Shown here in pieces: positions 5,457-54,754 of a DNA stretch of 64,000 nucleotides. Source of the stretch: Candidatus Omnitrophota bacterium (GTDB lineage Bacteria > Omnitrophota > Gorgyraeia > Duberdicusellales > 4484-171). The notes beneath the pieces were generated by a model. The model searched no databases, was not told the origin of the DNA, and saw only the letters and a list, made by a program, of their open reading frames with translations. The stretch spans positions 2,947 through 66,946 of the forward strand of contig WJJJ01000013.1 of the NCBI GenBank assembly GCA_014729775.1. The letters are read 5' to 3'. Position numbers and translations under genes: made by a program. How positions within the stretch are numbered: the stretch's first letter is position 1; every line of letters starts with the position of its first letter.

Positions 5457-6289
5457 TGAAAAAATATGTTAAAAAAATAGTGTCGTGGCTGGCCGTATAC
5501 AGCGGCATCGCGCGAGCGCGGCGGTATTTCCGGCGCAATCTGCCGGTGGTGTTATGCTATCACCGGGTGGTGGACGATCTTGCGCAGGCGCACCAGTATT
5601 CTGATTCGGGAATGGTCGTCTCACGGGAAACCTTCCGCCGCCAGATGGAATTCTTGCGGCGGCATTACTGCGTGATTTCCATGGATACCTTTACCCGGTT
5701 TCTGGACGGTGCCGGGCCGTTGCCTCAATATTCGGTGCTGGTCACGTTTGATGACGGATACAAGGACAACTTCACCTGCGCCTACCCGGTATTCACAGAA
5801 CTGGACCTGCCGGTGACGCTGTTCGTGACCACGGGTTTTATCGACGGCCGGATCGTCCCGGAGTGGGACCGGGAAGTGAATGGACAGCGGCCGGAGATGC
5901 TCTCCTGGGAAGAGATCCGGCGGATGGAGTCCAACGGCGTGACTATCGGCGCGCATACGGTGACCCATCCCGAGTTCGGTACTACCGATCCGAGCCGGGA
6001 GGAGGAGAGGTTGACCGAGATCCCGGCATCCAAACTGCGGCTGGAGGGTGTATTAGGCCAGCCGGTGGAAGTATTCGCCTATCCTAAGGGGAGCATGTCG
6101 ACCGCCGCGCTCAACGCGGTCAAGCAGGCCGGATTTAAAACCGCGTTTGTGGTGCGCCGCCGCGGGGCCGGTCATGACCGGAGGTATTGCTGGCCGCGAA
6201 TACCGGTAAATGAAGGCCGGACGCGGGGGCCGCGCGGGGAAACCGACATGAGGATGTTTGCCTGCGCGCTCGCGGGGATATGGAAATGA
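5456..6289 (+). CDS. polysaccharide deacetylase (NodB homology domain)
   Basis: VLVTFDDGYKDN...TLFVTTGFID...HTVTHP NodB motifs; alt GTG 5447. Confidence 0.8.
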   Translation: MKKYVKKIVSWLAVYSGIARARRYFRRNLPVVLCYHRVVDDLAQAHQYSDSGMVVSRETFRRQMEFLRRHYCVISMDTFTRFLDGAGPLPQYSVLVTFDDGYKDNFTCAYPVFTELDLPVTLFVTTGFIDGRIVPEWDREVNGQRPEMLSWEEIRRMESNGVTIGAHTVTHPEFGTTDPSREEERLTEIPASKLRLEGVLGQPVEVFAYPKGSMSTAALNAVKQAGFKTAFVVRRRGAGHDRRYCWPRIPVNEGRTRGPRGETDMRMFACALAGIWK

Positions 6290-8820
6290 AGGGAACCCAA
6301 CACACAACACAGAGTATCCCGGCGGTAGTGCTGGGTATGACCGCCAACGGGCTGTCGGTCACGCGAAGTTTAGGCCGTCAAGGCGTGCCGGTGACCGGGG
6401 TTGATTCCGGCCGGCATGAGCCGGGGATGTATTCCTGGTACTGCGATCCCCGGGTGTGTCCCGATCCCGGGAACGATCCTGAGGAGTTTCTGCATTGGCT
6501 TCTTGATTTAGGACGGTCATTCGCCCGGCGCCCGGTGCTGTATCTTACGTCCGATAAATATATCGGCGTGGTATCCCGCGCGCGGGAATCTTTGGAAAAA
6601 TATTTTTCATTTTTACTTCCGGACAAAGAGATCGTGGATGCGTTTTTGGACAAGGAACGCACCGCGGAACTCGCCGCGCGTCACGGCGCGCGTCATCCGC
6701 GTACATTCAAAGTACACGAGGAACGTGATCTGCGGGAGGTGTTGTCCATGGTCGCGTATCCGGTGATCTTAAAGCCGCGGTTTTCTCACGTGTGGAGCCG
6801 GTGTTACGGGGGGCAGAAGGTAATCATTGCAAATACTGGCCAAGAATTAAAGGATAAATATTTATACTTGCGAACCCAGTCACAAGAAGTTTTGGTTCAG
6901 GAAATCATCCCTGGACCTGATCAGAATGTGCATTTATTTATGGCATATTACAACGAGTATTCCGTATCCCTGGCGTTGTTCTGTTGCCGGAAACTGCGCC
7001 AGTATCCGCCGCATTTTGGTGTTGGGGCATTAATGGAAAGTATAGAAGAACCGTCAATCCAATCTGTGGGGGAGAGATTCTTAAGGTCAATAGGATATAG
7101 AGGACTTGTGGGGGTTGAATATAAGGTGGATGAACGTACTGGTGAACCGGTTCTTATTGAAGTTAATATGCGGACGAGTCTTGGCGGAGAAATAAGCGTT
7201 CAATCGGGGGTTGATCTTCCGATGATCATGTATCGCCATTTGGCCTGCGGCGAGTCTGAGCCGGACAAAAAGCACTTTTCATTCGTGCCCGGCGTGAAGC
7301 TGATGAACCTTGATCTCGATACCGGGAGCTTTCTTCGTTATCGTCGGGAAGGGGGAATGACACTTGGAGCATGGTTTCTTTCTTTTCGCGCACCGAAACT
7401 GGCCCATACCTATTTTGCCGCGGATGATTTGCGTCCATTTTTCGCGGTCTATTCCCGTTTTCTCAGAAAGATAGGCAGGAAGGTATTTGCGCGCGCGGGC
7501 ACTGCGAGCGCGCCGGCGCGGCGGGTTCCGGCGGTGGTGCTGGGTATGACCGCGAACGGGCTGTCGGTCGCGCGCAGCCTGGGCCGCAGAGGCATTCTTG
7601 TGATCGGGCTTGATTCGGTTGCCGACAGTATAGGATTCAGATCCCGGTATTGCCGCGCCGCGTGCTGTCCGGATGTCCTTCGGGAGGAAGCGGGATTTGT
7701 CGAGTTCCTTGAGCACGTGGGAAAACATTACCGGGAAAAGCCGGTGCTGATCATGACTGCCGATAGCTATGTTGACTGCGTGTCCCGGCATGAGGCGCGG
7801 CTGAAACGTTCTTTCCGGTTCACGATCCCGCGCCGGGAACAGGTTTCGGCGTTCCTGGACAAACGCCGCACCTACGAAGTCTTTCGGGAATACGGGCTCG
7901 CGTGTCCGCGTTCATTCCTGATCGCCTCGGCGGACGGCGCCGTGCGTGCGGCGGCGAAGGTGACGTTTCCCTGCGCGCTCAAGCCCGCCCGCTCGCATGT
8001 CTGGCGTCAAAAGTACGGCGGGAAAAAACTCTTCGTGGTCCGGTCGCCCCGGGAGCTTCGGGAACTGGCGATTAAGCTGATCGCACAAGGGCAGGAGATC
8101 TTCGTTCAGGAGCTTATCCCCGGAGCGGATAACTTCATCTATACCTTTGTCGCCTATTATGACCGGCAGGGCCGGGCGCTGGGGATCTTCACCAAGCAGA
8201 AGATACGCCAGTATCCAATAAAGTTCGGGATCGGCTGTTTTCACGAATCGGGCCAAAATCCGGAAGTACGGGAAAAAGGCCTGCGTTTTCTTTCGGCGCT
8301 GGGCTATACCGGCTTCGCGGGGATCGAATTCAAATACGACTCGCGGGAGAAAAGGTATAAAGCCGTGGAGGTCAATATCCGGACGCTGATGAGCGGGGAA
8401 CTCGCGGTGCGCTCGGGAGTCGATTTTCCTTATTTGTATTATCGCGATCATACGCAGCAGGCGGTTACTCCGGTCACGGCGTTCCGGGAAGGGGTCAAAT
8501 TCGTGCATGAAGACTTAGATCCGGCGTCGTTTTTCCGTTACCGGGCGCGCGGCGAACTCACCCTGCGCCAATGGCTCGCGACCTACCGCGGAGAAGTTCA
8601 TTGCACATATTTTCGTGTAGACGATCCGTTGCCTTTTTTGTTTATGTCCTGCAGGATAGTCCGGACCGCGTGGTGCAAATTAAGGAAATACGCGAGGTTC
8701 GGATTGTTACGATTGAGGGCCGGGCCTGTCGCTTGGAAAAGGGATTCCGTGCCGCGTTTGGATCGGGTGGCTCAGTTTGATGAACCTGAGGTGACAGAAG
8801 GAAAAAAGGCGGGAATATAA
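6280..8820 (+). CDS. tandem double ATP-grasp (COG3919-like carboxylate-amine ligase) fusion protein, 846 aa
   Basis: Two ~400-aa halves each start with P(A)VVLGMTANGLSV(T/A)RSLGR(Q/R)G and carry an ATP-grasp core (EYKVDERTGEPVLIEVNMR / EFKYDSREKRYKAVEVNIR); the repeat is visible at DNA level (6313-6378 vs 7519-7584). Confidence 0.7.
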   Translation: MEMKGTQHTTQSIPAVVLGMTANGLSVTRSLGRQGVPVTGVDSGRHEPGMYSWYCDPRVCPDPGNDPEEFLHWLLDLGRSFARRPVLYLTSDKYIGVVSRARESLEKYFSFLLPDKEIVDAFLDKERTAELAARHGARHPRTFKVHEERDLREVLSMVAYPVILKPRFSHVWSRCYGGQKVIIANTGQELKDKYLYLRTQSQEVLVQEIIPGPDQNVHLFMAYYNEYSVSLALFCCRKLRQYPPHFGVGALMESIEEPSIQSVGERFLRSIGYRGLVGVEYKVDERTGEPVLIEVNMRTSLGGEISVQSGVDLPMIMYRHLACGESEPDKKHFSFVPGVKLMNLDLDTGSFLRYRREGGMTLGAWFLSFRAPKLAHTYFAADDLRPFFAVYSRFLRKIGRKVFARAGTASAPARRVPAVVLGMTANGLSVARSLGRRGILVIGLDSVADSIGFRSRYCRAACCPDVLREEAGFVEFLEHVGKHYREKPVLIMTADSYVDCVSRHEARLKRSFRFTIPRREQVSAFLDKRRTYEVFREYGLACPRSFLIASADGAVRAAAKVTFPCALKPARSHVWRQKYGGKKLFVVRSPRELRELAIKLIAQGQEIFVQELIPGADNFIYTFVAYYDRQGRALGIFTKQKIRQYPIKFGIGCFHESGQNPEVREKGLRFLSALGYTGFAGIEFKYDSREKRYKAVEVNIRTLMSGELAVRSGVDFPYLYYRDHTQQAVTPVTAFREGVKFVHEDLDPASFFRYRARGELTLRQWLATYRGEVHCTYFRVDDPLPFLFMSCRIVRTAWCKLRKYARFGLLRLRAGPVAWKRDSVPRLDRVAQFDEPEVTEGKKAGI

Positions 8821-8824
8821 TCAT

Positions 8825-10903
8825 ATGGAAATAGTGTACACCGGTCTCCACAGTCTGAACGTGACCCTTCTGCTGTTTTTTGCGGTGCGGCTGCTGCGCA
8901 GAAAACATATTGTGAATCTGCTCGCGGGATTGAGCGTGAGCGCGCTGGCGGTGTATGAGGCGGGCAACGCTTTGTTGTCCGCCGGAGTCGCGGCATCGGC
9001 GCGGGTGATCGGCGCCGGGTTCTGTCTCGCGCCGGTGATGTGGATGGTATTGAGCGTGTCATTGCTTCCGCCCCGGTCGTCGCGCTGGAACCGGGTGATC
9101 CTTACGCCGGTGTTTGTGGTCTTATCGCTGGTATTCTTCCTGGTATGGTGGATCAATCCCTTTGTGCGCGCGGCTCATTTTACCGGCGGGGCCGAGTTGG
9201 CTCTGACCGCACGGTATTTCTTTGTACTGGTGGTATTTGACTGTATTCTGGCCTTGTCGAATTTGGAACGGGCTTGGTATTACCGCAAGGATCCGCTCAC
9301 GCGCCGGGTGCTGCTGAGCGGATTCCTTTTTTTAGTTCCCTTCGTTTTTATCTCCACCTACGCGGTGTTTCTTTCGAAGATGCACGTGAGCGGCCTGGCC
9401 TATTCCGCGGGAGCGGTGCTCATCGGCTGCGGAACGTTCTGGCCGCTTGCCCGCAGGGGATTCGGCCTGGCGGAAGTCAAAGAGGACGTGGCGGTAAATA
9501 CGTCGATGACGCTGTTTCTGCTCGGCGGATATTTGTTTCTCATCGGCGCCTTCGTGAAGCTGTTTCAGTGGTTCGGCTGGAATCTGAGCACGCTGTTCTC
9601 TTTCCTGACTACCGGGTTTGTTCTGCTGGCGCTGATGCTTCTTCTTTTTTCTCCCACGGTGAAACAGCGGCTCAAAACCGTGATGATGAGACACTTTACC
9701 CGGCAGAAGTACGACTGGCAGAAACTGTGGGAGGATTTCACCTACCGGATCTCCCTGGTGACGGATATCGAAGAACTGAAACAGAAGATCGGCGGCGCCT
9801 TGCAGAGGATCATGGGCGCCGACGAGGCGAGGATAGTATTGTTTGAGGAACGGGGCCCGTTTGAGCCGGAGTTCGAAGACTGGATGCTGCGCCGCGCCGG
9901 CGCGTTCGGCATGCGTGAGGTGCAGACGGAGGCGATGAAGAAGAAATATCCCCGTGCCTGTGCCTACCTGGAAGCCAGCGGCGCGGAGATGGCCGCGCCG
10001 CTCTACGGCGACAAAAAGGTCATCGGATTGATTTTTCTTTCGTTCCGCGGGGAACGGTTCGTGGACCGGGAACTGCTCAAGCTGATCACTTTGCAGGCTT
10101 CGGGAGTGATCGTCAACTGCTGGGCGTACCGCGCTCTGCAGGAGGCGGAAAAGAAAGAGTCCTTATATAAGGTATCGTCGTTCGTGATCCATGATGTGAA
10201 AAATTACATCAATCATCTTTCACTGCTGGTGTCCAACAGGGACAAGTTCGGCCGAAAAGACTTTCAGGAGGACGCGTTGTTTACCATTGAGAGTACCATC
10301 GTAAAGATGCAGAAGTTGATCGATGAGTTCCGTACTTTACGGGGCGAGGTGAGCGTGCGCAGCCGCGCATGCGCGGTTGCCGGGGTAGTGAACGGGGTGC
10401 TGAAAGAAATGGGAGAGACGCGTCTGCGTGGGGTGGACGTAAGAAACGAAGTGCCGGCGGATATCGTCGTGGTGAGCGATCCCGACCATCTGTATAAGAC
10501 GGTTCTCAATGTTGCGCTCAACGCGGTGGAGGCGATGCAAGGACGGGGGCGGCTTGAGTTCCATGCGGAAGAAAAAGAAAACCAGGGGATTCTTGAGGTG
10601 CGGGATACCGGCCCGGGGATGACGCAGGATTTTCTTGAAACGAAACTGTTCACGCCGTTCAGTTCGACCAAATCCAAGGGACTGGGGATCGGGCTGTATC
10701 AGTGCAAAACGATCATAGAAGCCAATCATGGCCGTATTGAGGCCGAAAGTACTCCCGGGGAAGGGACGGTATTTCGGATTGCCCTGCCGGCGGCGGGAAG
10801 GGGGCCGGCCGTGCCGGGCGATGAGAGGAACGTAGGAAAAGACACGACAGAGAAAGGATCCGAGTATGAGCAAGAACGAACAGGAACCACAGATCACGGC
10901 TGA
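8825..10903 (+). CDS. prsK: PEP-CTERM system sensor histidine kinase PrsK-like (N-terminal polytopic domain + GAF-like + HisKA/HATPase_c)
   Basis: ~8 TM helices N-terminal, then HDVKN H-box and GPGM...GLGIGLY ATPase motifs; sits immediately upstream of a sigma-54 regulator in an exosortase locus. Confidence 0.75.
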   Translation: MEIVYTGLHSLNVTLLLFFAVRLLRRKHIVNLLAGLSVSALAVYEAGNALLSAGVAASARVIGAGFCLAPVMWMVLSVSLLPPRSSRWNRVILTPVFVVLSLVFFLVWWINPFVRAAHFTGGAELALTARYFFVLVVFDCILALSNLERAWYYRKDPLTRRVLLSGFLFLVPFVFISTYAVFLSKMHVSGLAYSAGAVLIGCGTFWPLARRGFGLAEVKEDVAVNTSMTLFLLGGYLFLIGAFVKLFQWFGWNLSTLFSFLTTGFVLLALMLLLFSPTVKQRLKTVMMRHFTRQKYDWQKLWEDFTYRISLVTDIEELKQKIGGALQRIMGADEARIVLFEERGPFEPEFEDWMLRRAGAFGMREVQTEAMKKKYPRACAYLEASGAEMAAPLYGDKKVIGLIFLSFRGERFVDRELLKLITLQASGVIVNCWAYRALQEAEKKESLYKVSSFVIHDVKNYINHLSLLVSNRDKFGRKDFQEDALFTIESTIVKMQKLIDEFRTLRGEVSVRSRACAVAGVVNGVLKEMGETRLRGVDVRNEVPADIVVVSDPDHLYKTVLNVALNAVEAMQGRGRLEFHAEEKENQGILEVRDTGPGMTQDFLETKLFTPFSSTKSKGLGIGLYQCKTIIEANHGRIEAESTPGEGTVFRIALPAAGRGPAVPGDERNVGKDTTEKGSEYEQERTGTTDHG

Positions 10904-13589: not shown

Positions 13590-14336
13590 ATGAAGAAGGT
13601 AGTGAGTTTGGTGTGCGCGGTACTCGTAGGGATGATGGTTCAGGGGGTGGCTGAAGCATACACGACTTCGCTCACATTCAGCGGGAGCGCGCTATATGAC
13701 CTGGAGAATCCCGTATATTTTACGGAAGAGATGGTGCCGGATGCTGATACCCGGGAATTTTTGAACGGAGAAGATCCGTTTACCGGCGTGGGCGTAATAG
13801 ATTATACGATTGATTGGGATCTGCCGGAGTGGGATGAGCCGCGGTATTGGTCGGTTGATGCCAGCGCGAGTCTCTACGGTGAATACGTCGACGGCAGCGG
13901 AACGCATCATCCGGACATGGATCTGCATTGGTCCTCCGGCACGGCGTATATGGGACATTTTTCCCTGCAGACTTTGTTCGGGGGAATGACCGAAGATCAG
14001 GTAGTGAATCAAATCGTGGCAATGCTGGATCCGTATTACAGCGGAGATCTCGGCGGATACGCCGTACTCGAAGAGGGATTGGGCGGCATCGCGTTGGTCG
14101 GTGACTTGAATGCCGGGACGATTTACCTCGGTACCCTTGAGGATATTGACAGCGTACTGTTTCAGTTGAACGAAGATTATGACGGTTCCATGGACGTGAC
14201 CTCCGCGGATGTGACGTTCAGCGGTCAGGTGAACGCGACTGCCGCGGCTACGCCGGAACCGACGACCGTCTTCATGCTGTTGTCCGGATTGTGCGGACTG
14301 GCCGGGGTCGGTTTTAAAAAGAAACAGAAGGAGTGA
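13590..14336 (+). CDS. PEP-CTERM sorting-domain protein
   Basis: RBS GGAGG + ATG 13590; signal peptide MKKVVSLVCAVLVGMMVQGVAEA; C-terminus ATPEPTTVFMLLSGLCGLAGVGFKKKQKE. Confidence 0.85.
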   Translation: MKKVVSLVCAVLVGMMVQGVAEAYTTSLTFSGSALYDLENPVYFTEEMVPDADTREFLNGEDPFTGVGVIDYTIDWDLPEWDEPRYWSVDASASLYGEYVDGSGTHHPDMDLHWSSGTAYMGHFSLQTLFGGMTEDQVVNQIVAMLDPYYSGDLGGYAVLEEGLGGIALVGDLNAGTIYLGTLEDIDSVLFQLNEDYDGSMDVTSADVTFSGQVNATAAATPEPTTVFMLLSGLCGLAGVGFKKKQKE

Positions 14337-15010
14337 GAGCGGTGAGGAAGACTGTATTATTTTTGATCGGCGCATTAGTGATATCTTTTCCGGCGTACGC
14401 GATTACCTGGCTGACGCCCAATCTGGTGGTGAATCCGGGCGCGGAGACTGGTGATACCTCCGGCTGGGAAGTGTACGGTCCGGCGTACGCGACGACCAGC
14501 CAGTCCCAGAGTACCGGGACGGTCCTGCCTCATTCCGGCGATTATTTCTTTTCCTATGCGCAGAACGCGGCTTCGGATGCGGTTTTAGTCCAGTACGCGG
14601 ATGTGTCGACTTTTGCCGGTTTGATTGATTCCGGCCAGGCATATGTGCAGGCTGGGTTTTGGTACCAAACTGAAGAATATCAAGGTTCGAGCGATGAGGC
14701 GTTCGGTTCGCTGGGTTTTTTTGAAGGGGACAGCAGCGATATGCCGTTTGACGTGCTCACATCCGATCCGCTGGTGTCATCGAGTTGGGCGTACACGGAG
14801 GTGATGGAGTTGATCCCTGCCGGTACCCGGACTATAGGATTGGCAATGATTGGAGAGCTTGAGTCCGGCTCGTACGTGAACGCGTTCTTTGACGACGCGC
14901 AGCTGCGGGTCGGCACTGAAACCGTTATTCCCGAACCGGCAACCCTGCTGCTGCTTGGTAGCGGCCTGCTGGGGCTGGGCGGGACGCGGCTGCGGCGCAG
15001 AAAAAGATAA
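14333..15010 (+). CDS. PEP-CTERM sorting-domain protein
   Basis: GTG start (14333 or 14342) overlapping upstream stop; signal peptide; C-terminus IPEPATLLLLGSGLLGLGGTRLRRRKR. Confidence 0.8.
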   Translation: MRAVRKTVLFLIGALVISFPAYAITWLTPNLVVNPGAETGDTSGWEVYGPAYATTSQSQSTGTVLPHSGDYFFSYAQNAASDAVLVQYADVSTFAGLIDSGQAYVQAGFWYQTEEYQGSSDEAFGSLGFFEGDSSDMPFDVLTSDPLVSSSWAYTEVMELIPAGTRTIGLAMIGELESGSYVNAFFDDAQLRVGTETVIPEPATLLLLGSGLLGLGGTRLRRRKR

Positions 15011-18583: not shown

Positions 18584-18682
18584 GTTAACTTCGTAGGTTA
18601 ACCGCATAGCCAAAAAAGCATTGATTCTGTTGACTTTGGTTAACTTCGTAGGTTAACACGGGGGGAGGTTAACACGGGGGGG
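18584..18682. repeat. REP-like GTAG-containing palindromic repeats (GTTAAC-ttcGTAG-GTTAAC x2 plus GGTTAACACGGGGG x2)
   Basis: Exact 19-bp copies at 18584-18602 and 18639-18657; half-copies at 18651-18664 and 18667-18682; immediately upstream of an IS200/RAYT-type transposase gene. Confidence 0.55.
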
Positions 18683-18763
18683 CGGATGTGGGTGAGCGGA
18701 GGAGGGGTGACGAAGAGTTGACAGAGGGCGAAAAAAGAGAGATTATAACGAGAGGAGGTGAGG

Positions 18764-19468
18764 ATGAAGCTGAGAATTGAGGACGGCGGCGTGTATCATA
18801 TATTTAATCGGAGCATCGCCAATTTTGTTATTTTTCATACGGAGAGCGATTATAGAAGGATTATCTGCGCTTTTTCTTTTTTTCAATGGAGAGATCTTCC
18901 CTGTAGTTTCAACCGGCTTCTGAAACGGATTGAAACGGGTCAGCTCACAGAAAAGGACATTTTAAAAAAACAGATTCGATTACCGCGCACTCAAATCATC
19001 GCCTATTGCCTCATGCCGACTCATTTGCATATGATTTTAACACAGATAACTGCTGACGGAATAGCTCAGTATATGAAAAACGTACAGAACAGCTATACAC
19101 GCTATTTCAATACCAAGTACCACAGAAAAGGGCCCTTATGGGAAAGTCGGTATAAAAAAGTTCGGGTTACTACTGACAACCAGTTGCTGCATTTGACCCG
19201 TTACCTGCATTTAAATCCGGTCACGGCTCATCTGGTTGACGATCCGGAGCAATGGCCGTATTCTTCGTATCATGAGTACCTCAACCGTATTCCTGCAGAC
19301 GAGAGGATCTGCGGGTACGAAGATGTATTGGAAGTCAAACCTCGATCTTACCAGAAATTCGTAAGAGAACGCATTCATGATCAACGGGATATTGCCGCGC
19401 TCAAGAAATTTCATTTGGAAGATTGCGGCGATCATTTGTATGCAAAAATACCTTCTGTTCAATCTTGA
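18764..19468 (+). CDS. IS200/IS605-family Y1 (HUH) transposase, REP-associated tyrosine transposase (RAYT)-like
   Basis: YHIFNRSIANFVIF N-terminus, HUH motif LMPTHLHMIL, catalytic-Tyr region YTRYFN...RYLHLNPV; gene is conspicuously AT-rich relative to flanks. Confidence 0.75.
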   Translation: MKLRIEDGGVYHIFNRSIANFVIFHTESDYRRIICAFSFFQWRDLPCSFNRLLKRIETGQLTEKDILKKQIRLPRTQIIAYCLMPTHLHMILTQITADGIAQYMKNVQNSYTRYFNTKYHRKGPLWESRYKKVRVTTDNQLLHLTRYLHLNPVTAHLVDDPEQWPYSSYHEYLNRIPADERICGYEDVLEVKPRSYQKFVRERIHDQRDIAALKKFHLEDCGDHLYAKIPSVQS

Positions 19469-19542
19469 ATCCAGAGGCATTCGGAAAAGATCTGTGTGTG
19501 TAGGAGCACACACCCTGTGAGCCTCTGAGGGTAACGCGGTGA

Positions 19543-21924
19543 GTGCTTGCAAATCCGGCGCGTTTCGATTATGATAAGGACGTGGCTGCCTTCATTCGCC
19601 GATTCATTTTAGTCCTTTTGCGCCGGCCGCTGATATCGATCAGCGTGACCGGAGCAATTACGCTTCTGGCCCTCTCAGTCCTGCCGAAAATTCAAATCGA
19701 TCACAGCGTTGACGTATTCTTTGATCGTGACAGCCCCAGCTACGTGCAGTTTCAGGAATGGAAAAAAGAATTCGGAAGCAACCAGCTGATCGTGGTTGCG
19801 CTCGATTCCGGAGAGGTGTTTACCGAGAAATCTCTTCGGGTGATCCGTACGCTTACTCTCGCGTTTGAACGCCTGCCTCACGTGGACGAGGTGACCAGTA
19901 TTACCAATGTCAATGATATCCGGGGTTCCGATCAGGATTTTATCGTCGAGAAGTTTATTAAAGAGATCCCTTCTGATCCGGACGCGCTGTCCCGTCTCGA
20001 AACCGCCGCGCTTCAGAATCCGCTTTACGTGAAAAATCTAATTTCTCCGGACGGAATGGTTGCCGGTATCTCCATCGAGCTCGTCCGTCATGAAGGAGAA
20101 GATGATACCTATAAGAAGGAAGTCATCGAGGATGTATTCGAAATCCTTCAGAAGGAAGTCCCCTCTTCCCATGAGTATTACGTAAGCGGACTGACCACTA
20201 TCGAACATTTCTATGCCCGGTATATGCAGGAGGATCTCAAACGGTTCCTGCCGTTGATCTTCGTTTTTCTAATCGCAGTGTTGGTGATAAGTTTTCGGCG
20301 TCTGGGCGGCGTCCTTATTCCGCTGGTGACGATCACGGTGAGTCTGGTCTGGACAATGGCCTTCCTCTACTTCTGCGGGTTTTCCATCAATAACGTGACG
20401 ACGATTATTCCTCCGATCATCTTGGCGATCGCGGTTGCCGACAGCGTGCATTTAGTGGGGGAAACCCTGCAGAGGGCGCGAAGGGGGGATTTTTGCGGCG
20501 GGAAGGAAGAAAGTTCCGCCGTGGCGGAGACCGCGATGCATTTGCTTAAGCCCTGCGCGCTGACGACGCTCACTACGATGATCGGTTTTTATTCTCTCAC
20601 GGTGAGCCGGATCCCGCCGGTGCGGGAGCTGGGGATCGTCGCGGGAACCGGGGTCTTCTTTGCTTTTGTGCTGACCTTTACCTTTTTGCCCGCGCTGATC
20701 AAACAGTTTCATTTGTGTGCGATGAAGCCCGGCGGCGGGCGCGGGGCGCTGGACAGCGGGTTCGACGCGTTTTTAAAGAAGATGGCCGGATTCAGCGAAC
20801 GTTTTCATCGGGCGATTCTCTGGGGCGCGGTGCTTCTGGTCGCGGGCTGTGTGTGGGGTACGACGTTCATTCAGTCGGAAACAAGCGTGCTTGAATATTT
20901 CAAACCGCAGACACAAGTGTATCAAGCCACTACGTTTATGGAGGAGAACCTGAGCGGAGTGCATTTCCTTCAGATTTCCCTGCGTGCTCAGGAACGGGAT
21001 TATTTCAAGGATCCGGCGCGGCTCCGCGAGATCGAGAATCTGGAGCGTTTTTTGGAAAAGGTTCCTGAAGTCGATAAAGTCGAATCGGTCGTTGATTACG
21101 TCAAGGAGATCAATAAGTCGTTCCATAACGAGAATCCCGGCTATTACGCCATCCCGGAGTCACGGCCGCTTCTGGCGCAGTATCTCCTGTTGTACGGCGC
21201 CCGGGATTTACGTGAGTTTGTTGATTCCCAGTGGGAATGGACGACTGTGCAGGTCCGTCTCACCGAACATAGCACGGCGCGGCTGAGTGAAGTGATCGAA
21301 AATGTAGAGGGATATCTGCACCGTCATTTCAGCGGGATTGAAGCAAGGGTCCTGGGGCAAACCGTGCTTGAGGTGGAGACGAACAACGCCGTTACTGAGG
21401 GGCAGGTCAAAAGTCTGGCGATGGCAATGGCGGTGATCTTTGTCATGATGTTTTTCGTGTTCCGTACTTTCGGGGCCGGCATGGTGAGCATGGGGGCGAA
21501 TCTCTTGCCTCTTCTGATAAATTTTGGGATAATGGGGTTTGCCGGGATTCGGCTTGACAGCGCGACGTCGATGATTTCCGCGATCGCCATCGGCATTATC
21601 GTTGATGACACCATTCATTACATGCACTCGTTTCAGCATTCTCTGCAGTCGCGGGGAAAGTACCGGGAGGCGATGTATGATGCGTTCCATCAAAAGGGCC
21701 GGCCGATTATTCTTACGTCCCTAATTTTGTTCTGCGGTTTCGGAGTGATGATATTTTCTCATTTTGTCCCCACGTATTATTTCGGAATGCTGAGCGCGCT
21801 GTTGATGATTCATGCCTTGGTGGTCGATCTGATCATTCTGCCCAGCGCGCTGATAGCGCTGAAGCCCCGGTTTCGGTCGGGGCGGAAAGGAAAGGAGAAC
21901 CGCGAAAATGAACTCGTCCGCTGA
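19543..21924 (+). CDS. RND-superfamily exporter, MMPL/COG1033 type (12 TM, two large periplasmic loops)
   Basis: Two 6-TM bundles with sterol-sensing-like segments (ILAIAVADSVHL / AIAIGIIVDDTIHY); GTG start, true start may be GTG 19582. Confidence 0.8.
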   Translation: MLANPARFDYDKDVAAFIRRFILVLLRRPLISISVTGAITLLALSVLPKIQIDHSVDVFFDRDSPSYVQFQEWKKEFGSNQLIVVALDSGEVFTEKSLRVIRTLTLAFERLPHVDEVTSITNVNDIRGSDQDFIVEKFIKEIPSDPDALSRLETAALQNPLYVKNLISPDGMVAGISIELVRHEGEDDTYKKEVIEDVFEILQKEVPSSHEYYVSGLTTIEHFYARYMQEDLKRFLPLIFVFLIAVLVISFRRLGGVLIPLVTITVSLVWTMAFLYFCGFSINNVTTIIPPIILAIAVADSVHLVGETLQRARRGDFCGGKEESSAVAETAMHLLKPCALTTLTTMIGFYSLTVSRIPPVRELGIVAGTGVFFAFVLTFTFLPALIKQFHLCAMKPGGGRGALDSGFDAFLKKMAGFSERFHRAILWGAVLLVAGCVWGTTFIQSETSVLEYFKPQTQVYQATTFMEENLSGVHFLQISLRAQERDYFKDPARLREIENLERFLEKVPEVDKVESVVDYVKEINKSFHNENPGYYAIPESRPLLAQYLLLYGARDLREFVDSQWEWTTVQVRLTEHSTARLSEVIENVEGYLHRHFSGIEARVLGQTVLEVETNNAVTEGQVKSLAMAMAVIFVMMFFVFRTFGAGMVSMGANLLPLLINFGIMGFAGIRLDSATSMISAIAIGIIVDDTIHYMHSFQHSLQSRGKYREAMYDAFHQKGRPIILTSLILFCGFGVMIFSHFVPTYYFGMLSALLMIHALVVDLIILPSALIALKPRFRSGRKGKENRENELVR

Positions 21925-48957: not shown

Positions 48958-49338
48958 ATGCCGAGAGGAGACGGAACAGGGCCTCAAGGATTTGGTCCCA
49001 TGACAGGACGGGCCGCGGGGTATTGCGCTGGATTTGGAGTTCCGGGCTTTATGAACGTGGGGCCGGGCAGAGGATTTGGCCGCGGATATGGTCGCGGTTT
49101 TGGCCGCGGATATGGTCGCGGTTTTGGCCGCGGATTTGGTCGCGGTTTTGGCCGCGGCGCTGGGGCGGCATGGAGACAGGATGCGTATGCCTATCCGCCG
49201 GCCGGGTATTCCGGCACCCTTTCCCCGGAGGATGAATCCCGGGCGTTACGCGCCCAGGCCGAAGGGATGGAACGTGAACTTCAGGCGGTGAAGCAGCGTC
49301 TGCAGGAATTGGAAAATCAGGCTGCTCAGGAAGAATAA
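48958..49338 (+). CDS. DUF5320-like protein with Gly-Arg-aromatic repeats and C-terminal coiled coil
   Basis: RGFGRGYGRGFGRGYGRGFGRGFGRGFGRG array then a heptad-rich tail; recalled as often found next to NifX-like and Fe-S ATPase genes. Confidence 0.5.
   Translation: MPRGDGTGPQGFGPMTGRAAGYCAGFGVPGFMNVGPGRGFGRGYGRGFGRGYGRGFGRGFGRGFGRGAGAAWRQDAYAYPPAGYSGTLSPEDESRALRAQAEGMERELQAVKQRLQELENQAAQEE
49076..49150 (+). repeat. tandem 24-bp DNA repeat (GGCCGCGGATATGGTCGCGGTTTT x3+) encoding the GFGRGYGR motif
   Basis: Directly visible: tttggccgcggatatggtcgcggttttggccgcggatatggtcgcggttttggccgcggatttggtcgcgg. Confidence 0.8.
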
Positions 49339-52470: not shown

Positions 52471-52579
52471 CCCCCCAAACTAGGTTCAACCTACGCGGTT
52501 GAACTCACCGTGAGCCCCGATCGAGAAAGGAAAATCAAGGAAACCTTGTGGTTCAACCTACGCGGTTGAACCGGGGGGG
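52471..52579. repeat. REPIN/MITE-like element: C6 - [GGTTCAACC-TACGC-GGTTGAAC] - 46-bp spacer - [GGTTCAACC-TACGC-GGTTGAAC] - G7
   Basis: Two identical 22-bp GTAG-containing palindromes (52483-52504, 52551-52572) flanked by CCCCCC/GGGGGGG; 90-bp core differs by 1 nt from the copy at 54136. Confidence 0.7.
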
Positions 52580-52782: not shown

Positions 52783-54120
52783 ATGCGAATACTCATAATC
52801 GGAGCGGGGCCAACCGGCTTAAGCACGGGCCGGAGGCTTCTTGAGTTGGGACACGATGATTTTACAATCTATGAACAGCACTCCTACGCGGGAGGGCTGT
52901 GTGCCAGTTTCCGCGATGAGCAGGGTTTTACCTGGGATCTCGGCGGGCATGTGATCTTTTCCCAGTATCCCTACTTCAACCAGTTGTTTGAATCGGCGCT
53001 CCACGGTCAATTTTACGAGCATACCCGGAAGGCCTGGATTTATTTCATGGACCGATGGGTGCCTTATCCGTTTCAAAACAACCTTCGTCATCTGCCGCGG
53101 GAGGTAATTGCCAAGTGCGTGCGGGATCTTCGTGCGGCGCATCGCAAGAATACTTCTCCGGAGAATTTCAAAGAGTGGATTATGGCCAACATGGGCGAAG
53201 GGATCGCCCAGTATTTTATGCTTCCCTATAACGAAAAAGTATGGGCGTATCCGCTGGAGGACATGAGTGCGGACTGGATCACCGAACGGGTCAGCCGGCC
53301 TGACGTAAAAGAAGTGGTAGGGCTGCTGATCTCAGATAAAGACCGTATGGATTGGGGGCCGAACTCCATTTTTAAGTTTCCCGCTGAAGGGGGGACGGGC
53401 CAGATCTTCCATAACGTGGCCGCCCAGCTTGCACAGAAGATACAGTTCGATACGCGCGTGGAGGAGGTGGATCTTATTGGTAAAAGCGTGAAGCTGAGTA
53501 ACGGCGCGCGGCAAGGGTATGATGTATTGGTGAATACTTCTCCCCTCGATCTTTTCACCCGCATGTGCGCAGGGGCGCCGGCATCGCTGACGGAATGGGG
53601 GGAACAATTGGCACACAATCGGGTATGGGTCGTTGGCGTGGGATTAAAGAAAGGAGCGCTCGATGAAAAATCGTGGGGATATTTTCCGCAGAAGGATGTG
53701 CCGTTCTTCCGCGCGACCTATTTTTCCAATTATTCTCCACGTAACGTACCCGGCCCGGGATACCGGTCGTTTTTGTGCGAAACGGCATATTCTGAGGATT
53801 CCCCATTTGGAAAAAACCAAGCCGTGGATACGACGATCGCAGGTCTTCTTGACACCGGTTTAATCGCGCCGGAGGAAAGGAGCAATATTGTGTCTACGTT
53901 TTCATTCGATATCCCTTACGCCTATCCCATTCCTACCCTAAACCGGGAGAAAGTATTGGCGCGGATTAATCCGCTGCTTGAAGAGCACGGGGTGTTTTCG
54001 CGAGGTCGTTTCGGGGCGTGGCGGTATGAAGTAGGCAATACCGACCATTCGGTCATGCAGGGGAAAGAAATCGCCGACCGGATAGTGAACGGAACGACAG
54101 AGACGGTGTGGCACGGGTAA
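52783..54120 (+). CDS. NAD(P)/FAD-binding oxidoreductase (amine-oxidase / UDP-galactopyranose-mutase superfamily)
   Basis: N-terminal Rossmann MRILIIGAGPTGLSTGRRLLELGHDDFTIYEQHSYAGGLCAS...WDLGGHVIF. Confidence 0.65.
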   Translation: MRILIIGAGPTGLSTGRRLLELGHDDFTIYEQHSYAGGLCASFRDEQGFTWDLGGHVIFSQYPYFNQLFESALHGQFYEHTRKAWIYFMDRWVPYPFQNNLRHLPREVIAKCVRDLRAAHRKNTSPENFKEWIMANMGEGIAQYFMLPYNEKVWAYPLEDMSADWITERVSRPDVKEVVGLLISDKDRMDWGPNSIFKFPAEGGTGQIFHNVAAQLAQKIQFDTRVEEVDLIGKSVKLSNGARQGYDVLVNTSPLDLFTRMCAGAPASLTEWGEQLAHNRVWVVGVGLKKGALDEKSWGYFPQKDVPFFRATYFSNYSPRNVPGPGYRSFLCETAYSEDSPFGKNQAVDTTIAGLLDTGLIAPEERSNIVSTFSFDIPYAYPIPTLNREKVLARINPLLEEHGVFSRGRFGAWRYEVGNTDHSVMQGKEIADRIVNGTTETVWHG

Positions 54121-54130
54121 ATACCTAAAA

Positions 54131-54255
54131 CCGCCGGTTCAACCTACGCGGTTGAACTCACCGTGAGCCCCGATTGAGAAAGGAAAATCAAGGAAACCTT
54201 GTGGTTCAACCTACGCGGTTGAACCGGGTTGGGGCACGCGGTTGAACCGGGGGAG
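54131..54255. repeat. REPIN/MITE-like element, second copy (with extra partial third palindrome)
   Basis: 54136-54225 is 89/90 identical to 52483-52572; extra GCGGTTGAACCGGGGG at 54237-54252; begins 11 bp after the oxidoreductase stop. Confidence 0.7.
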
Positions 54256-54421: not shown

Positions 54422-54533
54422 TCCTATAATCATTATAGATATTCCGCACCTCACAGATTAGCGATAAGCGCGCGGCGCGTCAGGTGTGCCTCGCCTCCCC
54501 CTTTGTGTGCCCCGCGCGAGTCGCTAATCTGTC
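54422..54533. promoter_or_regulatory. Fur-core-like palindrome CTATAATCATTATAG plus long inverted repeat ACAGATTAGCGA...TCGCTAATCTGT
   Basis: 15-bp perfect palindrome 54424-54438 containing ATAATCATTAT (centre of the E. coli Fur box) and a TATAAT hexamer; 12-bp perfect IR arms at 54452-54464 / 54521-54533 extendable to ~22 bp with a bulge. Confidence 0.4.
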
Positions 54534-54754
54534 TTCATCTCTTTGCGCAATCTGTCAACTCCGCCTGGGGCGATTTTCCCTGGTGAGTGCCTCATTTCTG
54601 AGTACGCGGTTCGCCCCGGACAGGCGAGTACCGAGAGTGCCGGAAATTATCCGTGACCGATTGCAAAGCGTATGATTTTCTTATAGAATACCTTTGCGTG
54701 AGGGAAATCCGGGGGATACAATGACTGCCGGTAATTGGAGGAAGGAGGCTTGAC

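Follow-up and report, generated by a model that had tools for sequence, protein, structure and literature searches.

A class-2 Y1 transposase-like gene and GTAG-loop hairpins in an exosortase locus of Candidatus Omnitrophota: a candidate REPtron-like unit

In an exosortase/PEP-CTERM operon of a Candidatus Omnitrophota bacterium, an AT-rich gene for a Y1-type enzyme stands behind a cluster of small palindromes bearing the tetranucleotide GTAG. The question raised by this arrangement is whether gene and palindromes form a unit in which an enzyme of the RAYT type is accompanied by REP-like repeats, or whether they represent an insertion of the IS200 type. RAYT enzymes and their REPs provide the most familiar instance in which bacteria have retained a transposase along with the miniature substrates on which it acts; how such enzymes select hairpins and cleavage sites has been worked out in just a few cases, all proteobacterial. 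Here we describe the gene, its protein and its neighbouring hairpins within a stretch of 64,000 nucleotides (the window, meaning the whole stretch of DNA analysed), and compare them with loci from other genomes and metagenomes. We favour, with moderate confidence, the reading of the locus as a REPtron-like unit from an unclassified clade of class-2 Y1 enzymes, inserted in the exosortase operon.

The Y1 gene and its place in the exosortase locus

The gene (18764..19468, + strand) is intact and encodes a Y1/HUH endonuclease of 234 aa. Its open reading frame can be read from 18758 or 18764, and ATG 18764 is adopted as the start codon because 234 aa is the length of the database protein P0001 (tag GF333_03160), which comes from a Candidatus Omnitrophica MAG and is identical to the window protein. 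Upstream lies a sigma-70-like promoter match (TTGACA-17-GATTAT, 18718..18746, + strand), which at 10 of 12 positions is a match to the consensus only, followed on the same strand by a ribosome-binding site, GAGGAGG, at 18752-18758. The HUH motif HLHMIL, recognized in the original prediction, occupies residues 87-92 of a protein that scores above the cut-off for Pfam Y1_Tnp (32.5 bits against 23); further along are W126-E, Y147 within YLHLNP, and S167-S168. Alignment of 40 homologs showed H87, H89, W126, Y147, N151 and S167-S168 to be invariant, with the pair N151 and P152 invariant or nearly so. T86 is likewise invariant in this alignment, and the resulting T-H-u-H form of the HUH motif, constant in the family, fits no published subclass signature. 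The protein has a conserved tail of about 80 aa, in which an AlphaFold (AF2) model built on the 40 homologs (pLDDT 88) places a single long C-terminal helix (residues 193-220) followed by a disordered end; no HTH was detected in the protein with Pfam.

Class-2 TnpA_Y1 proteins are defined by the signature Y---NP, whereas those of IS200 (subclass 1.1) carry Y---Q, in the form Y[IV]ENQ (Quentin et al. 2018, PMC6006769); IS200 TnpA proteins are also core-only, with a median length of 152 aa, and are present as many near-identical copies per genome (PMC6006769). Among proteins of known structure, the top sequence match of the window protein is E. coli TnpAREP (4ER8, E = 7.5e-6), with ISDra2 TnpA at E = 0.1. 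The AF2 model also finds its top fold match in 4ER8 (E = 1.2e-6, TM 0.68 on target), with ISDra2 and IS608 at about 1e-3, so that IS200/IS605 transposases are about a thousand-fold weaker fold matches. The NCBIfam model NF047646 (REP_Tyr_transpos) gave 68.2 bits, below its cut-off of 80, over a match limited to profile positions 45-146, a result that counts against the REPtron-like reading. On its motifs and predicted fold, the protein is RAYT-like and not an IS200-type TnpA, since it has Y---NP rather than Y---Q, differs in length and has TnpAREP as its top structural match. These same three features dispose of the canonical IS200 TnpA that had been offered as the alternative to a RAYT, and we would advise that the gene not be labelled an IS200 transposase in annotation.

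The homolog family comprises 2,489 matches, mainly from Omnitrophota, Patescibacteria and Scalindua, none of which exceeds 53% identity to the window protein. Members of the clade are numerous in Omnitrophota and in bacteria of candidate phyla, and the clade extends to an anammox planctomycete. One copy of the Y1 gene was found in the 64 kb, and a paralog from the same MAG (P0112, tag GF333_08045) is about 50% identical. The top identity of the neighbouring RND protein to other sequences is 56%, and the MAG has no close sequenced relative, so the absence of near-identical Y1 copies elsewhere says little. Neither hairpin, nor any member of the protein family, was found when viral contigs were scanned.

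The setting of the gene was examined through a metagenome locus (L039/L040) that carries an ortholog of the RND gene (52% identity). Gene order there is that of the window, with six PEP-CTERM genes followed by RND, ThiF, LolA-like, DUF1302 and FeeM genes, and the interval between the last PEP-CTERM gene and RND measures 111 nt, with no Y1 gene in between. Because L039/L040 lacks a Y1 gene at this point, the roughly 1-kb cassette of the window can be regarded as an insertion relative to a conserved layout. Judged from this synteny, gene and repeats have been inserted after the last of the PEP-CTERM cargo genes and before RND, in agreement with the original prediction. For the RND gene, GTG 19582 is the probable start codon, with a separate promoter match upstream of it. 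The Y1 gene is an intruder in the exosortase/PEP-CTERM operon and stands outside the secretion system.

The low GC content that had been noticed for the gene was confirmed: the window averages 53.1% (sd 3.5) and the gene 42.3%, the lowest value among all 705-nt windows, with a GC3 of 0.458 (0.451 from ATG 18764) that is the lowest among the long ORFs of the window. This difference was rejected as a sign of recent arrival. In all eight family loci compared below, the Y1 gene has a higher AT content than the locus that hosts it, and these include copies fixed within housekeeping operons; the P0002 and P0101 copies, for example, hold a fixed position in 16-23 contigs, with coding sequences that overlap their neighbours. 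As AT-richness is a trait of the Y1 family, low GC cannot date the insertion.

Hairpin families in the window and in other genomes

Upstream of the gene stand two copies of a hairpin (family A), GTTAAC-TTCGTAG-GTTAAC, in which a 6-bp stem closes a 7-nt loop containing CGTAG. The corresponding 19-mer, GTTAACTTCGTAGGTTAAC, occurs exactly at 18584-18602 (A1) and 18639-18657 (A2) on the + strand, 55 nt from start to start as originally described, placing A1 at -180 and A2 at -125 relative to the ATG. The 36-nt spacer between them (18603..18638, + strand) ends in a segment, AAGCATTGATTCTGTTGACTTTG, that resembles a conserved segment, TAAGTCATTGATATTCAAGCACTTG, preceding the 19-mer in Ratteibacteria and Omnitrophica loci. 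The two half-sites that had been reported alongside the palindromes proved to be an exact tandem duplication of 2 x 16 nt (18650..18681, + strand), whose unit, AGGTTAACACGGGGGG, consists of AG, the 3' stem arm and a G-run; its left boundary falls within the hairpin loop at CGT/AG (the slash marking the break). No T-tract follows the upstream hairpins. We also considered, and discarded, a large cloverleaf-like structure in which the upstream region as a whole folds by pairing of its C-rich left flank with its G-rich right flank; it proved no better than shuffles (z = -0.39).

In the window, the two exact copies of the 19-mer compare with 0.02 expected, and no other site was found even when three mismatches were allowed. 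Hairpins having a 7-nt NNCGTAG loop and a stem of at least 5 bp number six, against a chance expectation of about 0.075 per 64 kb, and ACNNCGTAGGT occurs eight times against 0.14 expected. The total of GGTTAAC sites, at five, is close to the 5.3 expected; all five lie within 80 nt, at 18596-18673.

Past the stop codon, where two small hairpins had been predicted at 19493-19532, we found a nested hairpin (19472..19526, + strand) with a 7-bp inner stem, GTGTGTG-taggag-CACACAC (19493-19512), enclosed by an outer stem (19472-19478/19520-19526). The prediction was thus roughly right as to the presence of structure, the stability of which is marginally above that of shuffles (z = -1.9), but the hairpin is of another class than the upstream pair, to which it is unrelated, and its loop is not of the NNCGTAG type. 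This counts against the REPtron-like reading, as the two ends match in most relatives.

A search of the window for the apex of family A, AC-NN-CGTAG-GT, brought to light a second hairpin family with this apex (family B) farther along, its GTAG strand being the minus strand. The first doublet (52483..52575), downstream of a small ORF, consists of two hairpins, GGTTCAAC-cgcgtag-GTTGAACC, 66 nt apart. The second (54136..54228), identical to it at 92 of 93 nt, stands just past an amine-oxidase ORF (52783-54120), so that two 93-nt doublets one base apart in sequence flank this ORF. An extra, truncated hairpin end (54236..54253, minus strand), which reads ACGCGGTTGAACCGGGGG on the + strand, terminates on the GTAG strand at CGCGT/AG, and this fragment breaks at the same loop position as the boundary of the family A duplication. 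The layout of family B mirrors that of family A in having two direct hairpins (66 versus 55 nt) followed by a G-run, with a truncated half-site at one copy. No Y1 gene was found near the family B doublets.

Across a collection of 185,579 genomes, among which the source MAG is not included, the family A 19-mer was found in one record, another Omnitrophica MAG (WOR_2, L001), where it is single-copy; the match extends over 25 nt and is therefore not due to chance. Nine metagenome loci also contain it. A conserved neighbouring segment of 25-60 nt accompanies the 19-mer in Ratteibacteria (L022, two 175-nt copies), in Omnitrophica WOR_2 (L001), and in L006 and L007. In Ratteibacteria, a separate candidate phylum, the 19-mer forms the sharp terminus of a repeated extragenic module of 47-175 nt, of which a single 6-kb stretch contains two copies, one following folD and the other brxL. 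Modules of this kind lie at the 3' ends of genes or between convergent genes, sometimes supplying the stop codon (L001, L007, L009), and among the 19-mer loci L007 alone has a family Y1 gene within 600 nt. In two loci, L002 and L008, the 19-mer alone is shared and the adjoining module is missing; these matches may be due to chance. A nhmmer search with a 60-nt module profile gave no further degenerate copies in the window or the fetched loci, and Rfam gave no match in the window or in the nine module loci. The 19-mer was also considered as a possible promoter mark and rejected as such, since in the other loci the DNA past it is the 3' end of a convergent gene.

REP families have tens to hundreds of copies per genome. 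In the 64 kb, family A is confined to its one locus and family B has two loci, and the 19-mer is single-copy in the sole complete genome record that contains it. The confinement of family A and the single copy of its 19-mer count against the REPtron-like reading. Taken on their distribution in sequence, the hairpins would behave like low-copy REP-type elements.

Hairpins beside Y1 genes across the family

The association between hairpins and gene was followed in eight independent family loci: the window and seven further loci (L011, L019, L026, L032, L034, L036 and L041), the latter chosen without regard to repeats. A perfect hairpin adjoins the Y1 gene in every one of them; in seven it has at least 6 bp and lies within about 20-95 nt of the ATG, while the window hairpins are farther away (107-180 nt), which counts against the REPtron-like reading. 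In most of the family loci a matching copy is present at or just past the stop codon. Hairpins stand on both sides of the gene in L019 (CGCACCCC-W-GGGGTGCG), in L034 (TTTCAAC-tgcgtag-GTTGAAA) and in L041, from Ca. Scalindua rubra (CCCAC-ctcgtag-GTGGG). L026 has three copies of CTTGCAC-cgcgtag-GTGCAAG, and L032 has GGCAAC-ctcgtag-GTTGCC upstream with the same stem but a different loop downstream; other palindromes occupy these positions in L011 and L036.

The 7-nt NNCGTAG loop is present in five of the eight loci (four from Omnitrophota and that of Ca. Scalindua). Hairpins without CGTAG in the other three count against the REPtron-like reading. In the flanks of six homolog loci, about 115 kb in total, NNCGTAG hairpins were found only beside the Y1 gene, apart from one lying 1.6 kb off in L026. 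When nine hairpins are aligned, the apex AC-NN-CGTAG-GT is invariant, GTAG forming the last four loop positions and adjoining the 3' arm in all nine, and five of the seven stem pairs have changes on both sides. The hairpins in this count of compensatory changes were selected as hairpins; what provides independent evidence is that they lie beside the gene. The upstream palindromes of the window are members of a hairpin class statistically tied to the Y1 family.

Known systems, competing readings and a proposed mechanism

Among described systems, REPtrons (E. coli YafM, 4ER8; subclasses 2.2, 2.4, 2.5, 2.7 and 2.8, PMC6006769) are among the closest. Common to both are the HUH plus Y---NP core and a C-terminal tail with W-P-x-SS-Y, and REPtrons supply the top match in sequence and fold. 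Short GTAG-bearing hairpin repeats flank the gene in REPtrons as here, gene-less hairpins are dispersed in extragenic DNA with several hairpin families per genome, and paralogs are of low mutual similarity. There are also differences. The original prediction had taken GTAG beside a palindrome as a hallmark of REPs, and whereas the tetranucleotide is indeed present, it occupies the apical loop and not the 5' foot of the hairpin, where classical REPs carry GT[AG]G, a difference that counts against the REPtron-like reading. REPINs are inverted, whereas the doublets described here are direct; the REPtron HuH motif is D/N-H-u-H rather than T-H-u-H; and REPtron proteins are about 150-165 aa long, compared with 234 aa in the window.

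In length the protein agrees better with the TIRYT proteins of TIRtrons (Di Nocera et al. 2013, PMC3733652), which correspond to TnpA_Y1 subclass 2.1 and Bertels group 1. Proteins of this type are about 230-240 aa long, with about 238 aa given for subclass 2.1, and carry Y[IV]HLNP or YIELNP, to which the YLHLNP of the window protein comes close (L for I/V), and their W[EQ] and SS tail motifs are matched by W126-E127 and S167-S168. The window protein is nearer by sequence to subclass 2.1 than to 2.2, and a typical 2.1-type gene in L039 is 33% identical to it (tblastn E = 3e-20). However, the HuH motif of TIRYT/2.1 is NH[VYF]H, compared with THLH in the window, and its C-terminus is HTH-like, whereas a long helix is predicted here by AF2. 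A further point in common is that the TIRYT repeats are low-copy, flank the gene at a similar distance from both ends and are in some cases self-complementary (PMC3733652), but the GGGGWSAS inverted-repeat pair is missing at our locus, a single GGGGTGAC at 18704 having no partner and the motif being at background level in the window (0.36 per kb). The GTAG-bearing hairpins also set the locus apart from subclass 2.1, in which Quentin et al. found no REP-like sequences (PMC6006769).

The alternative that survives best is that of an autonomous IS200-like insertion sequence, in which the entire hairpin-gene-hairpin cassette (about 0.75-0.95 kb) is mobile, the Y1 protein is an active transposase responsible for copying its own gene, and solo hairpins are decayed ends or miniature derivatives. 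IS200 elements have in common with this family the Y1 HUH fold, AT-richness relative to the host, as is usual for mobile DNA and is seen in all eight loci, an upstream hairpin near the ribosome-binding site and, in relatives of the window gene, a compact hairpin-tnpA-hairpin layout of about 0.75 kb. In four of these relatives (L019, L026, L034, L041) the gene is bracketed by near-identical hairpins, the upstream one about 14-66 nt from the ATG and the downstream one 1-9 nt from the stop, an arrangement comparable to the related subterminal hairpins at IS200 ends, whereas the pair in the window is upstream only and the two ends of its cassette differ. The cassettes are found in unrelated contexts, including within operons, and the window copy is itself an insertion relative to synteny; moreover, Y1 genes were also present in unrelated loci retrieved for other purposes (L007, L039), suggesting that a genome contains many of them. 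Yet near-identical copies were not found, the same-MAG paralog being about 50% and other matches at most 53% identical in the case of a MAG without a close sequenced relative, and the P0002/P0101 copies stay at one genomic position across 16-23 contigs, overlapping their neighbours. The enzyme itself lacks both the Y---Q motif and the core-only build of about 150 aa expected of IS200, and in its Y---NP motif, its C-terminal tail and its fold it is nearer to TnpAREP than to IS200/IS605 TnpA. We regard an autonomous insertion sequence as the main competing explanation, serious but rather unlikely, from which the data set the REPtron-like reading apart only imperfectly.

A host function for the hairpins, as terminators, mRNA-stabilising stem-loops or operators of a GTTAAC-binding regulator in intergenic DNA upon which the Y1 protein does not act, appears very unlikely. 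Classical REPs have such side roles, and the positions of the copies at 3' ends or between convergent genes, the stop codons supplied in L001, L007 and L009, and the location of the window copies in the interval from the 3' end of the preceding gene to the Y1 promoter would all be in keeping with them. A local regulator, however, would not explain the same apex on co-varying stems beside Y1 genes in two phyla, nor does such a role sit well with the lack of a T-tract after the hairpins, with a 93-nt family B unit copied almost exactly between sharp boundaries, or with truncated copies whose breaks fall within the loop. Fortuitous clustering of short palindromes beside an unrelated transposase-like gene, for which one could cite the self-complementarity of GTTAAC and the unremarkable window total of GGTTAAC, was rejected by the shuffle controls as vanishingly improbable, given the excess of the 19-mer, of NNCGTAG hairpins and of ACNNCGTAGGT and the gathering of all GGTTAAC sites within 80 nt.

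For the favoured REPtron-like unit, we propose a mechanism in which the gene for a class-2 TnpA_Y1 (RAYT/TIRYT-type) single-stranded DNA endonuclease/ligase is accompanied by a doublet of what are most likely its cognate hairpins. TnpAREP and IS608 TnpA are known to bind a folded single-stranded hairpin and to cut and rejoin DNA via the HUH metal site and a tyrosine (PMC8266576, PMC3479197), and by analogy the Y1 protein should do the same. Expressed from its own promoter, the protein would bind its hairpins in single-stranded DNA by reading the apex AC-NN-CGTAG-GT, with stem sequences that differ from one hairpin family to another. Conservation of the loop, set on stems that vary, suggests that the protein reads the loop and that family specificity comes from the stem. 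Cutting and rejoining would proceed via H87 and H89, as metal ligands, and Y147, through a covalent 5'-phosphotyrosine. The two truncated copies (18650-18681 and 54236-54253) are what hints at cleavage within the loop, at CGT/AG. Cleavage in a loop is unusual for a Y1 transposase. The outcome would be the spread of hairpin-only units, such as the 93-nt doublets at 52.5 and 54.1 kb and the 19-mer module in other genomes; the hairpin-gene cassette itself would also have moved at some time, and may still be mobile.

More tentatively, and as a proposal that we consider possible rather than probable, the T-H-u-H ... Y-x-H-L-N-P clade of about 220 aa may constitute a type of REPtron outside the published classifications, with its recognition and perhaps cleavage element, AC-NN-CGT/AG-GT, in the apical loop. 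Origin hairpins of HUH Rep proteins likewise present a conserved loop sequence on a varying stem. The parallel with these Rep systems of rolling-circle plasmids and CRESS-DNA viruses is an analogy only, as they comprise a Rep protein and a replicon, whereas here the enzyme is of the Y1 transposase type and has no replicon context. Were the proposal true, the hairpins of the clade would be closer to HUH Rep origin hairpins than to the REPs of known RAYTs, which are tagged at the foot; cassettes of hairpin, gene and hairpin would establish themselves within operons, and hairpin-only modules would be common to several phyla, as with the exact 19-mer and its neighbouring segment in Omnitrophica and Ratteibacteria. 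Coming from poorly studied phyla, this clade, with an invariant loop on co-varying stems, provides a clean and testable recognition rule, and could help to account for the spread of small hairpin modules among widely differing genomes.

Family A hairpins and their apex motif

The 19-mer (family A hairpin GTTAAC-TTCGTAG-GTTAAC), two copies of which precede the RAYT-like Y1 gene of the window, also occurs in other genomes. In Omnitrophica WOR_2 (MHGN01000005; locus L001, 738-838) a 34-nt segment (GATAAAAGGAATG...) that is coding sequence for the C-terminus of a Clp-type ATPase flanks it on both sides as two copies that have diverged, and the ATPase gene presently ends inside the hairpin (…LLTS*); this arrangement looks like an insertion footprint. 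In a Ratteibacteria locus (L022), the 19-mer opens a composite extragenic repeat of ~175 nt, continuing with other G/C-rich hairpins (CCTCTCCCCatcGGGGAGAGG) and present in two direct copies, one after folD and one after the BREX gene brxL (2244-2416 and 5533-5706).

Within the window the apex motif ACNNCGTAGGT occurs 8 times, against 0.14 expected. Two of these exact matches, on the minus strand (7870-7880 and 9356-9366), lie inside coding regions, where both lack a proper stem, and may represent either decayed copies or a codon-driven coincidence.

Family B hairpins and other repeats

A second hairpin family, GGTTCAAC-cgcgtag-GTTGAACC, forms hairpin doublets in the window, where two 93-nt copies (52483-52575 and 54136-54228), identical except at 1 nt, bracket an amine-oxidase ORF and are accompanied by a truncated extra end (54236-54253). 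No Y1 gene was found in the vicinity of these copies in the window; their cognate may be GF333_08045, a Y1 paralog elsewhere in the genome.

Two other repeats were observed. The 530 nt of non-coding DNA that precede an MscS-type channel gene contain a long inverted repeat with imperfect arms, ACAGATTAGCGATAAGCGCGCGG ... CCCGCGCGAGTCGCTAATCTGT (54450-54535), for which no Rfam match was found, and seven tandem 12-nt units (GGATTTGGCCGC / GGATATGGTCGC; 49060-49169) have as predicted product a Gly/Arg/aromatic repeat (GFGRGYGRG...).

Y1 genes in their host loci

In the start region of the RND ORF (19543-19600), the start as listed is GTG 19543. Because a promoter match (TTGCAA-17-TATGAT, 19547-19575) and AAGGA precede GTG 19582, and because homologs cover 96% of the RND protein query, the sequence suggests that GTG 19582 is the true start.

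GC and GC3 of the Y1 gene were below those of the host DNA in 8/8 loci (z -0.8 to -3.5), comprising L011, L019, L026, L032, L034, L036, L041 and the window gene (18764-19468), and this also holds for Y1 copies embedded in housekeeping operons. In L039, an exosortase locus from another organism that is syntenic with the one in the window, a different Y1 gene (13845-14405) follows DUF1302, at a position differing from that of the window Y1 gene, and encodes a typical subclass 2.1 protein (NHVH, YIELNP, 186 aa). Such genomes seem to host Y1 genes frequently.
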